Source of the DNA: Promethearchaeota archaeon
GTDB lineage: Archaea > Asgardarchaeota > Lokiarchaeia > Sigyniarchaeales > SOKP01
DNA length: 64,000 nucleotides
Assembly (NCBI GenBank): GCA_016840085.1
Contig: JAEOTA010000004.1
Location: 32,001 to 96,000, forward strand
Reading direction: 5' to 3'
Shown here: in pieces, positions 33,785-36,772 of the stretch
Layout of the letters: each line of letters opens with the position of its first letter
Position numbering within the stretch: the first letter of the stretch is position 1
Notes under the pieces: model-generated
What the model was told of the DNA's origin: nothing
What the model saw: the letters and a program-made list of their open reading frames with translations, nothing else
Database searches by the model: none
Program-made: the position numbers and the translations under genes

Positions 33785-34963
33785 ATGAAAGCTGTAGAAT
33801 TATCTGCAAAATGGGATCCAAAACCAGATTTTAAACTTGGATCCAAAGATATAGAAGGAAAATTAACTTATTTAGGTTCTCAAGTATGGCGTAATCCTGT
33901 CGTTAAGGTACGAGAAAAAGATAAACCTCAAATTAAACCAAATGAAGTATTGGTTAAAGTAAAAAGGTGCGGAATTTGTGGCTCAGATGTCCATATGGCT
34001 CAAACATATGAAGATGGTTACATTTATTACCCTGGTTTGACAGCTTTTCCTGTCACTCTTGGACATGAGTTTGCTGGGGAGATTATAGAAGTTGGAAAAA
34101 AAGCAATTAATAAGAGAACTGGAAAACTTTATAAAACAGGAGAACCAGTCACAGTAGAAGAGATGGTTTGGTGTGGCGAATGTAAACCTTGTTGTGATGG
34201 GTTTCCAAATCACTGTGAAAGATTACAAGAAATAGGATTTTCTATTGATGGTGCATACGCTGAATTTATTGCTGTTCCAGCAAAATTATGTTGGAGTTTG
34301 AAGAAGTTAGAACAGAAATATGAAGATGTTTTTAAAATTGGCAGTTTAGTAGAACCAACTTCAGTAGCATATAACGCAGTTATAGAAAGAGGTGGTGGAA
34401 TTCGACCTGGTGAAAATGTCATTATATTAGGTGGAGGACCCATTGGCTTAGCAGCAACGAAGATTTTAAAAACTGCAGGAGCTGCTGTATGTATCGTTTC
34501 AGAACCAGAGGAGACTAGAGCTTCAATAGCTAAAAAATTAGGTGCTGACTATGTAATTAATCCCATTAAGGAAGATTTTGTTGAAAAAGTAAAAGAATAT
34601 ACTGATAACGAAGGAGCTACTCTCTATCTTGAAGCAACTGGATTACCAGATATTGTAACAGATGATATACAAAATACAATATGGGAATGTAAAACTGTTA
34701 ATAGTACAGTAGTTATTGTAGCAAGAGCAGAACAAAGAATGCCCGTTTGTGGAGAATATTTCCAAGTTAGGAGAGCTCGCATCGTTGGTTCTCAAGGGCA
34801 TTCTGGCCATGGTAATTTTCCAAACGTCATTAGTTGTATGGCCGCTGGCATGGATCTTATTCCGATGATTACAAAAGAGATAAGTCTTGATGAAGTCCCT
34901 GAAAATTTGAAATTATTACTATCCGATCGAGAAAATTGTAAAATATCTTCAGTAATAGGTTAA
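33785..34963 (+). CDS. iolM: Scyllo-inosose 3-dehydrogenase (Zn-dependent, Thermotoga IolM type)
   Basis: AKWDPKPDFKLGSKDIEGKLTYLGSQVWR N-terminus, CGICGSDVH, YPGLTAFPVTLGHE, GSQGHSGHG. Confidence 0.88.
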   Translation: MKAVELSAKWDPKPDFKLGSKDIEGKLTYLGSQVWRNPVVKVREKDKPQIKPNEVLVKVKRCGICGSDVHMAQTYEDGYIYYPGLTAFPVTLGHEFAGEIIEVGKKAINKRTGKLYKTGEPVTVEEMVWCGECKPCCDGFPNHCERLQEIGFSIDGAYAEFIAVPAKLCWSLKKLEQKYEDVFKIGSLVEPTSVAYNAVIERGGGIRPGENVIILGGGPIGLAATKILKTAGAAVCIVSEPEETRASIAKKLGADYVINPIKEDFVEKVKEYTDNEGATLYLEATGLPDIVTDDIQNTIWECKTVNSTVVIVARAEQRMPVCGEYFQVRRARIVGSQGHSGHGNFPNVISCMAAGMDLIPMITKEISLDEVPENLKLLLSDRENCKISSVIG

Positions 34964-35015
34964 AAATGTAGTCAATAAAAATATTATATTTTTTTTTTAA
35001 TTTTTTAAATAAAAC

Positions 35016-36431
35016 TTAAATCCTAGATCTTTTTAAAGAATTTCTCTTATTAAAGGGAGGAACCGAATTAATACAATTTTTAAAAACTTCTTTCATTAAA
35101 TTTTCACCTAAAGAGAGCATGAATGCTAGACCTTTACTACCATCTTTTCTAATAGTTTCTTTTTGACGAATTTCATATTTGATATCAAATTTTCCTTTAA
35201 TATCCTCTAAGAATTTTTTGCTCCCACTTGTTATAAGAGTTTTTCCTTTCGACCCATCTCCGTCCCAATAACCAAGTAAAAACCCTAAATATATATTTAA
35301 GCTTGCTTTTAACTCTGGTAATCTTATATTAGAAGATTTGTTTTTCCCAACTATAAAACCAAGATTTTTCAAGTGTTGTACAAATTTTTTGCTTTTAAAT
35401 TGAATCCTAATAGTGTCTTTAAATTCGAAATGCTCATCATAATTAAAATTAGAATCAATTATAGATACAATTCTAAAATGCGTAATTTTGTTAATTTTAT
35501 GTATATCAAAACCAATATCCTTAGCAAACTTCAGTATGAGGTCTTGTGCATCATTGGACATTTCAATACCGAATATAACTTGATTAGAGTTTTTATCTAG
35601 AGTCATATATCCATCAGCGAAGATTAGTCCTAACCAATAACCTTTTAGTACAGAATTAATATTTTTAAAGTAATCCTCATTAAATTCTGATTGATGTCTT
35701 AAAATACCTTGGTTTGATTTTGGTAAGTCATTGAATTCACGATAACGGCTAAAAATATCTATTATAGTTGTTAAATCTAAATCCTGAAGCTTTCTTATTA
35801 AATTGTTTTCAAATTCTTGTAAAACATTTTCTGAAAACAGATAATGAGGATTATTATGAATATCGTATATACGGTCAGTTATATATGCGTTATATTTTCC
35901 AATTAGTCTACTCAGTGAATAATTTGTAATTTCAATTGATGCCTCTCTAAAAGTGATTATCTTTGTAATTTTTCGTTTTAGTTGCTCAATAAATTTCAAC
36001 TGTTTACGAGGTGTAGTAAGTGTATTAAATAAATCTAAGCTATTCTTATAACTATAAGTTTCAATGAGATAGAAAATATTTTGACTTAATATTCCAAATC
36101 TTTGTTCTAAAGTTTTTTTCCATTTTTTTATTATTTTTTTTGAAATTTGAAAACTAGGATCATTATTAATTTTTAATTTTATATTTTGTGTAATATATTG
36201 ATCAGAATATCCCAATATTCGACTTAATTCTTTATCAGTTAATTTAATAGACACCAAGGAGAGATGTACTATTCTTTCGATTTCGTGTTTTAAATCGTAT
36301 ATAAAATCTATCGTATTATAGCTAATATGTCTAATAGGCTTCTCAGAAAATTTACTGCTGCCAAAATATTTCCATTTAGAATGAAATACAAAAAAATCGG
36401 GATCTTCTTGATTGGCAATAATCTTTAACAT
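35016..36431 (-). mobile_element. Free-standing double-motif LAGLIDADG homing endonuclease with two N-terminal helical (HTH-like) repeats
   Basis: YWLGLIFADG and FLLGYWDGDG motifs; N-terminal repeats LTDKELSRILGYSDQYIT and ITNYSLSRLIGKYNAYIT; no intein or intron context. Confidence 0.88.
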
Positions 36432-36664
36432 TTTCTCTTAAAACTTTTTAAATTTTTTTCAATTATCTCTAAAACTATAGATTTTTAACCTAAAAAGCCG
36501 TGATTTAATTTTACAATCTCTCTCTTTTTATTAGATTCATTTTCGTGTATTATTAGTTATAATTTGCTTATGAATTTAAAAGAAAAGACTGTAAAATATT
36601 AGTAAAAAATAAAATATTAGTAAAACGATCACAAATTTGCCCCTATAGTGATAAAAGAAATAAC

Positions 36665-36772
36665 ATGACCCCAATGATAACAAAAGAAATCTCACTTGAC
36701 AAAGTTCCCGAAAATCTTATACTTTTACAAATCGATAAGGAACAATGTAAAATTTCAATCAAACTTAGTTAA
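36665..36772 (+). pseudogene. iolM: Displaced 3' end (35 aa) of an iolM allele
   Basis: MTPMITKEISLDKVPENLILLQIDKEQCKISIKLS* vs IolM end LIPMITKEISLDEVPENLKLLLSDRENCKISSVIG* (23/35 identical, same distance to stop). Confidence 0.88.

Follow-up and report, generated by a model that had tools for sequence, protein, structure and literature searches.

A LAGLIDADG endonuclease gene between two iolM 3′ ends in a Lokiarchaeia genome suggests gene-end replacement without splicing

Why should the last codons of a complete gene recur behind it, with a gene of opposite orientation in between? The question is raised by iolM in a Promethearchaeota archaeon (GTDB lineage Archaea; Asgardarchaeota; Lokiarchaeia; Sigyniarchaeales; SOKP01), within a stretch of 64,000 nucleotides (nt), hereafter the window, that covers positions 32,001–96,000 of the forward strand of contig JAEOTA010000004.1 in GenBank assembly GCA_016840085.1. 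The genome, labelled G000 here, comprises 4.7 Mb in 89 contigs, and the window corresponds to C19:32001–96000. On it, an intact iolM is followed by a convergent gene for a LAGLIDADG endonuclease, then by a second iolM 3′ end and then by an Hsp20 gene. A preliminary description of this DNA had proposed that the endonuclease gene inserted into iolM and supplied it with a new C terminus. We find that the attached end is indeed the outlier and the displaced end native, and we consider it likely that the locus holds a homing element that spreads by replacing a gene end and does so independently of splicing.

The iolM gene (33785..34963, forward strand) is one uninterrupted frame of 392 codons for a protein of the zinc alcohol-dehydrogenase fold, which matches the NCBIfam equivalog NF041097 (keto_inos_dh_IolM) at 500.9 bits (cutoff 450) and whose database relatives are scyllo-inosose 3-dehydrogenases of Promethearchaeota/Lokiarchaeia (Asgard archaea). 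The second 3′ end (36665..36772, forward strand) consists of 35 codons plus stop, detached from the gene and in the same register as the attached end through to the stop codon. The attached counterpart is the last 108 nt of iolM (34856–34963), and the two copies agree at 23/35 amino acids (aa), as had been reported, and at 65% of nucleotides. When the whole 4.7-Mb genome was searched with tblastn, the displaced end was matched by iolM at E 1e-6; because the next-best iolM-like gene is only 31% identical, the fragment does not come from a paralogue. Furthermore, an independent Logan contig from run SRR14699980 spans positions 34707–36862 at 100% identity, and the layout is therefore no artefact of binning or scaffolding.

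Which of the two ends belongs to this gene can be read from alleles that lack the endonuclease gene. We collected 11 such full-length orthologues, each exactly 392 aa long, ten from the same genus (84–91% aa identity) and one from another genus (77%); behind iolM in these and in two partial orthologues, 13 loci in all, there is no insert, no second tail and no scar of earlier visits. In most empty alleles about 130 nt of spacer separate the iolM stop from Hsp20, and it is the displaced end, with its stop, the spacer at 36773..36901 (forward strand) and the Hsp20 start, that is colinear with them, the spacer sharing with most of them a conserved block, CATAACTTTTTTATATCATTTTCATCTATTTTTGTTATT, and the Hsp20 start, ATGAATGAAAA. 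Across the final 108 nt, the displaced copy shares 84% of its nucleotides with the L004 allele and 85% with L011, whereas the attached copy reaches 64–72% with all 11 orthologues, no nearer than the out-genus allele. The ends of empty alleles thus match the copy at 36665, as the preliminary description had anticipated. The 5′ part of iolM itself, taken in 90-nt segments, mostly shows 86–94% identity to L004 and L005, its nearest congener alleles.

The same division is seen in the protein sequence. The displaced tail keeps the orthologue signature MTP...LLQxDK...ISIK, and the attached tail reads LIP, LLLSD and DRENCKIS, with an ...IG ending. LLLSD occurs in none of 120 database tails besides the attached end, and DRENCKIS and the ...IG ending are present in other Asgard lineages. 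A tree of the final 108 nt unites the displaced copy with L004 and L011 (support 83/82) and gives the attached copy a branch of 0.29 next to the out-genus allele, with support values that are weak because the alignment is short. By these sequence comparisons, the displaced end is the native one and the attached end is foreign.

Where, then, does the foreign part begin? Counting as private those positions at which G000 differs from all ten congeners, we found 17 among the first 1013 nt of the gene (1.7%) and 17 among the last 166 nt (10%; Fisher p 4e-7), with only 4/108 in the displaced end. The density of private substitutions jumps about six-fold at gene nt 1013, which is also the maximum-likelihood breakpoint (about 34798; support 990–1058, that is 34774–34842 on the window; log-likelihood gain 12.9). 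A native 5′ part (gene nt 1–1013; 33785..34797, forward strand), recognized by congener identity, few private positions and the equivalog match, therefore precedes a foreign, apparently co-converted 3′ part that includes the stop codon (34798..34963, forward strand) and is marked by private-substitution density, breakpoint, tree and the unique LLLSD. The earlier proposal of a replaced 3′ end thus stands, but its boundary has to be moved: the foreign tract starts about 58 nt upstream of the duplicated segment, in single-copy sequence, which a local duplication cannot explain and a crossover within iolM can. Of 70 positions around the junction, 12 in the occupied allele depart from the congener consensus. 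Compared with an empty allele, 1809 nt have been added (34856–36664) and about 58 nt upstream converted; sequence comparison thus supports the entry into iolM of about 1.8 kb, made up of foreign tail and nuclease gene, which would have moved the native tail downstream.

The gene that separates the two ends (35016..36431, reverse strand) is free-standing: it has its own start and stop and runs for 471 codons without stop or frameshift. The protein matches Pfam PF14528 (LAGLIDADG_3) at 37.3 bits (cutoff 22.5; E 3.4e-9), a match that detects the second half only; NCBIfam gave no match, nor did a sequence search against solved structures. Both LAGLIDADG motifs carry their acidic residues, in keeping with the preliminary description: motif 1, LGLIFADGY, has D273 at a position that is D or E throughout the family (alignment of 22 sequences), and in motif 2, LLGYWDGDGS, the residues G387, D390, G391, D392 and G393 are invariant among the 22 sequences, 21 of which are relatives. 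An AlphaFold2 model built on the family alignment has high pLDDT over residues 141–460 and, over residues 250–460, values mostly ≥85 for two alpha-beta-beta-alpha-beta-beta-alpha halves in one chain. With this model, the best Foldseek matches were the bI3 maturase, at the top, I-SceI, PI-PfuI, I-Tsp061I and I-DmoI (probability 1.0, E 3e-6 to 1e-3). By motifs, profile and predicted fold, the protein is a single-chain, two-motif LAGLIDADG endonuclease. Members of this class are defined by site-specific cleavage of a long target of about 14–40 bp.

The N-terminal 240 residues hold two copies of a helical module of about 66 residues (33% identical, E 1e-10), repeats that had been suspected from the start and are real; the second is conserved across the family and resembles a helix-turn-helix (HTH). 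A TATA-like A/T-rich stretch 13–24 nt upstream of the endonuclease ATG may serve as its promoter. An intein- or intron-encoded endonuclease was considered and rejected: there is no Hint domain, and the gene is antisense to iolM and lies beyond its stop. No transposase, integrase or Hint/intein domain was found in the endonuclease open reading frame (ORF) or in the neighbouring genes for a major facilitator superfamily (MFS) transporter, Hsp20 and a TIM-barrel protein, as previously described. The Pfam search likewise found no Hint domain in ten longer family members, and for the long family frames (597–804 aa), which have LAGLIDADG_3 or no Pfam family, an intein or fusion was rejected too. With the endonuclease ORF on the opposite strand and the iolM frame uninterrupted, the arrangement is independent of splicing.

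How might such a structure come about? In the gene-end-replacing reading, the mobile unit would consist of a diverged iolM 3′ end, the opposite-strand LAGLIDADG gene and a short, older iolM-tail remnant. The donor-encoded endonuclease would cut an endonuclease-free iolM at the conserved codons ...NVISCMAAGMD/MTPMITKE..., within gene nt ~990–1072 and most probably at or just before 1072, and the donor copy would serve as template for repair of the break. The left crossover would fall within iolM near 34798; the donor tail, spacer and endonuclease gene would be copied by synthesis; and the right side would be rejoined to the recipient's own tail at 36664/36665. If this right junction is taken to reflect end-joining or microhomology, the break would have lain at or just before gene nt 1072. 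The outcome would be a full-length chimeric iolM whose new tail departs from the target sequence in many places and would presumably escape cutting, and a native tail left as a dead fragment downstream. A 22-nt stub just ahead of the displaced end would be what remains of the donor's own displaced fragment. The activity of the enzyme, the place of cleavage and the resistance of the new end are thus putative throughout, being deduced from the sequence.

If the endonuclease makes its living in this way, its relatives should sit beside displaced gene ends as well, as the preliminary description had also supposed. The family comprises about 252 clusters at 50% identity (E 1e-10 or better) and occurs in 35 of the 68 sampled genomes of the same taxonomic family, in 2/7 of a sister family and in 3/3 of one further family, with none in the 301 genomes of 27 other families of the phylum; there are one to five copies per genome, many of which hold stop codons. 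We compared the two flanks of each copy (1.5–2.5 kb) with each other by translated search, in one set of 28 distinct places from 13 genomes and a second of 20 places from other genera. At 12 of these 48 genomic places, and at one of two metagenomic elements, the endonuclease gene adjoins a displaced gene end, with ten or more different host genes affected, in agreement with that expectation. As a control, 150 random places in the window's own genome gave six positives, each of which was a pair of whole paralogues in tandem. At E ≤ 1e-4, the count is 10/48 against 6/150 (p 8e-4), a comparison that is approximate because flank lengths differed somewhat between the sets.

In the first set, a gene end lies on both sides of the nuclease gene at 6/28 places: the 3′ end of iolM in G000; the 3′ end of rpoN, with the tail ...HVDLIDELLKFPRLQ, in the congeners G023 (L040) and G008 (L037); 65 codons from the 5′ end of a DUF1848 gene, in G023 (L049, C20, 109–2747); and the initial codons, again a 5′ end, of a GH38 gene, in G005 (L044) and G002 (L030). 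Displaced 3′ ends abut the nuclease gene at 6/20 places of the second set, from a 350-aa frame without a name (39 aa, 87%), an SNF2 helicase, twice (72 aa and 46 aa), PGM/PMM, also twice (47 aa), and a P-type ATPase (22 aa). The DUF1848 case is instructive: the displaced piece is 74–83% identical to congeners and the intact gene beside the nuclease about 40%, which implies that a whole foreign gene came along, and on this sequence evidence the native gene in G023 seems to have been replaced by an entire foreign homologue. The closest metagenomic relative, P0006, is convergent behind an intact Dam-type methylase gene, with a displaced 141-codon 3′ fragment of that gene on its far side (60% identity, E 3e-50); a second metagenomic relative at the same Dam methylase gene has no displaced fragment.

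Two further observations concern individual members. The GH38 (alpha-mannosidase-like) gene, which stands beside a decayed family member, carries an in-frame stop soon after the replacement 5′ end (...THWDRETLYD*), seen at L044 (G005:C9) 1100–1300 and at L030 (G002:C20) ~1130–1280; either this host gene is broken or its true start lies further downstream. A second family copy in the window's own genome (C37:30741–32006; L002:1462–2856, minus strand; 31% identity) lies upstream of a gene without known name and is divided by one in-frame TGA into frames of 84 and 374 aa; it has no flanking duplicate that we could find and is probably decaying.

The rpoN locus suggests what such an element may leave behind. 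In G000, the last 17 codons of rpoN (C69:52967–52739, minus strand) recur 72 nt further on. No nuclease gene stands between the two tails (both within C69:52616–52789, minus strand), which are the same two that flank the family member in G023 and in G008. The far tail copy of G000 is 35/36 identical to that of G023, which does have the nuclease gene. Judged from these sequences, the duplicate in G000 is probably the scar of an old invasion from which the nuclease gene has since been deleted.

Quite apart from its tails, rpoN (RNA polymerase subunit N/Rpo10) is split after ...CCKRMIV by a 31-nt insert, behind which the tail SHVDLIDELLKFPRLQ follows. The insert, which holds stop codons and shifts the frame, is found in three species (G000 C69:52787–52817, minus strand; L040:986–1016; and L037, in reverse, ~2792–2822). 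Its predicted fold is a hairpin closed by exon-exon pairing of GCAUGA with UCAUGU (z −2.5 to −4.6), with compensatory changes in the inner stem (GGC/GCC, AAGC/GCUU, AGAGU/ACUUU), and looks like a mini-intron of the tRNA (bulge-helix-bulge) type in an mRNA.

Other histories could in principle leave two iolM ends around a nuclease gene. One is that the iolM 3′ end was first duplicated in tandem, that the endonuclease gene then inserted between the copies and that the attached copy diverged in place. The two co-oriented copies that flank the insert are what this history predicts, and short tandem features, the 16-bp repeat described below and the 22-nt stub, lie close by. It would nevertheless require about 35% nucleotide divergence in the attached copy of a gene whose other parts are about 9% from L004, and private changes begin some 58 nt ahead of the duplicated segment, in single-copy DNA; DRENCKIS and the xIIG ending, found in other lineages, point to import rather than local drift. 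We therefore regard this order of events as very unlikely. Still less credible, and in our judgement close to negligible, is that the fragment at 36665 is what was left of a second iolM or a paralogue deleted when the endonuclease arrived, or that assembly has fused two strains at this locus. Strain variants can indeed become joined in metagenome-assembled genomes, and the estimated contamination of this one is 7.6%. Yet the genome has no iolM paralogue above 31% identity, no second tail was seen in any of the 13 congener loci and the run-level contig spans both copies and the insert without a mismatch. The fragment, moreover, precedes the same spacer and Hsp20 as the single iolM of most congeners and is thus the native end of this very gene.

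Ordinary horizontal transfer deserves more weight, although we still hold it to be unlikely. Here, homologous or illegitimate recombination would have brought in the iolM tail together with the gene, and the LAGLIDADG protein would be inactive, a DNA-binding regulator or an enzyme that cuts elsewhere. In its favour, cleavage is only deduced in the homing model, the right junction appears non-homologous, most family members lack a flanking duplication, and some LAGLIDADG proteins, such as the bI3 maturase, are maturases or have lost nuclease activity. But both catalytic acidic residues and the invariant motif glycines have been retained, and the gene-end design recurs at 10 or more host genes beside one nuclease family, far above the random background, a pattern that is difficult to account for if the nuclease does not open the way. 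Several points nonetheless weigh against homing by gene-end replacement. The searches yielded no donor for either the endonuclease or the iolM tail: a word search of 5.8 billion proteins found no endonuclease relative above 35% identity, the best among 1.84 billion representatives was at 42%, and the closest iolM tail among 120 database proteins agreed at 28/35 aa; the donor lineage is unsampled. The right junction, beside the 22-nt stub, lacks the long homology that simple two-crossover homing predicts. In roughly three quarters of the family, no duplicate was detected in the 1.5–2.5 kb of flank searched; these copies may have entered intergenic sites, lost their fragments or keep fragments too diverged to detect. 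The tail tree, at 108 nt and weak support, counts as supporting evidence only, and enzyme activity, cut site and tail resistance are putative, as stated. The model would also require some route by which donor DNA meets the recipient chromosome in these archaea.

Taking these points together, we still favour homing by gene-end replacement at iolM, and for the family as a whole we lean, with less assurance, towards the view that a diverse LAGLIDADG family of Loki-type Asgard archaea lives by exchanging one end, 3′ or 5′, of the cellular genes it enters. This wider reading takes in about 250 clusters and around half of the genomes in this archaeal family, with targets that include the essential rpoN.

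The insert has several further features. The 52-nt spacer between the convergent stops (34964..35015) belongs to it, has 7.7% GC and cannot be aligned to the post-iolM spacers of empty alleles. On the other side, the endonuclease upstream region and right end of the insert (36432..36664, 233 nt, reverse strand) has 20.6% GC and is absent from empty alleles. Composition is uninformative as a mark of foreign origin, with 26% GC in the nuclease gene and 29% in the window. Two 16-bp direct repeats, TAAAATATTAGTAAAA, lie at 36592–36607 and 36610–36625 (forward strand), exactly as first described; a repeat search found these two occurrences only in the whole genome, and no role for them emerged. The 22-nt stub (36640–36661, forward strand), which lies 7 nt before the displaced end, repeats in part, for a third time, the beginning of the duplicated segment (PMITKEI codons) and agrees with its first 22 nt at 17 positions (17/22 against 36669–36690); matches of at least 17/22 number four in 316 kb, three of which are iolM copies.

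Around iolM, the interval 32235–39418 has the character of a sugar- or inositol-type cluster, with an MFS_2 transporter (32235–33668), a xylose-isomerase-like TIM-barrel gene (37543–38394, reverse strand) and a gene for 322 aa (38450–39418). The Hsp20/alpha-crystallin gene (36902–37495, forward strand) contains a Lys/Glu-rich low-complexity insert, KEKEKKDEKKEKDKKEKKDEKKEKDKKKEK, within the crystallin domain.

What would follow if the proposal is true? It would describe homing free of introns and inteins in an archaeal chromosome, at an ordinary metabolic gene and with empty alleles available for comparison, a process whose workings had been established for the WHO elements of yeast and deduced for fungal mitochondria. 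The wider family would represent, on archaeal chromosomes, the equivalent of the yeast WHO/HO lineage and would be a steady source of chimeric genes, displaced-tail scars and short-tract gene transfer between species. Asgard genes can then be foreign-ended chimeras, which matters for the phylogenies that use them, and short orphan gene tails in these genomes become readable as scars of invasion. Because the spread of such an element requires DNA exchange from cell to cell, which is little documented for Asgard archaea, frequent exchange among these cells would be implied. The system also lends itself to experiment, since the nuclease is defined, the target interval is narrowed to 80 nt and nature provides alleles that are presumably sensitive or resistant; the family is further predicted to yield new long-target nucleases that carry HTH modules in addition.

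How does the iolM locus compare with known systems? The principle itself is known already from yeast nuclei and fungal mitochondria, and what the iolM case adds is the archaeal chromosome. In agreement with the preliminary description, we came across no account of endonuclease genes that replace gene ends on archaeal chromosomes in the full-text literature searched, subscription journals being outside its coverage, and a 2026 review treats free-standing homing endonuclease genes as mainly a phage matter (PMC13565253). The iolM case is well documented because empty alleles, a breakpoint and family-wide recurrence could all be shown.

The preliminary description had pointed to fungal mitochondria as precedent, and the layout there is indeed similar, but the WHO elements of yeast nuclei prove to be the closer parallel. 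These elements lie at the aldolase gene FBA1 in Torulaspora and Lachancea yeasts (Coughlan et al. 2020, eLife, PMC7282813). In the model proposed for them, a sensitive allele is cut and repair copies the donor's resistant 3′ end together with the nuclease gene, so that integration yields a chimeric resistant gene, the nuclease gene and then a fragment of the recipient's old 3′ end (PMC7282813). At iolM, too, the gene immediately behind a complete host gene encodes a LAGLIDADG-type nuclease, the arrangement does not depend on splicing, and the host gene is a chimera that is far more divergent 3′ of the inferred cut; the layout is the one that the WHO model predicts. The differences are nevertheless considerable: WHO proteins are intein-derived, with Hint and zinc-finger domains, whereas the protein at the iolM locus lacks Hint and has HTH-like repeats; WHO elements home between homologous chromosomes in diploid meiosis, and the host here is an archaeon; WHO loci are often stacked clusters, in place of one element and a 22-nt stub; and WHO cleavage has been demonstrated experimentally, whereas here it is deduced from sequence.

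With the mobile endonuclease ORFs of fungal mitochondria, at atp6, cob, cox2 and atp9, the locus shares an ORF placed between an intact gene and a partial C-terminal duplicate. For atp6 of Allomyces macrogynus (Paquin et al. 1994), the reported interpretation was that a foreign C terminus had been imported together with an endonuclease gene. Free-standing LAGLIDADG and GIY-YIG genes also stand beside partial C-terminal duplicates of atp6 and cob in the mitogenome of Endoconidiophora resinifera (PMC6279837). Those ORFs are, however, organellar and often co-oriented with the host gene or fused to it in frame, whereas the iolM element is on a cellular chromosome and its ORF is convergent, with its own start and upstream region.

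The Seg and Mob endonucleases of T-even phages exemplify intronless homing by free-standing enzymes (reviewed in PMC13565253). They resemble the element described here in being free-standing genes among conserved ones, and they cut a nearby conserved gene in genomes that lack them and spread through repair of the break, with co-conversion of flanking markers. They differ in being GIY-YIG or HNH enzymes that depend on phage co-infection, and the flank is replaced in their case with no displaced gene end. Within archaea, finally, I-DmoI, I-Tsp061I and PI-PfuI have the same single-chain, double-motif fold that is predicted for the endonuclease at iolM. The genes of those enzymes, however, are guarded by RNA or protein splicing, whereas here it is the carried replacement end that keeps iolM whole.

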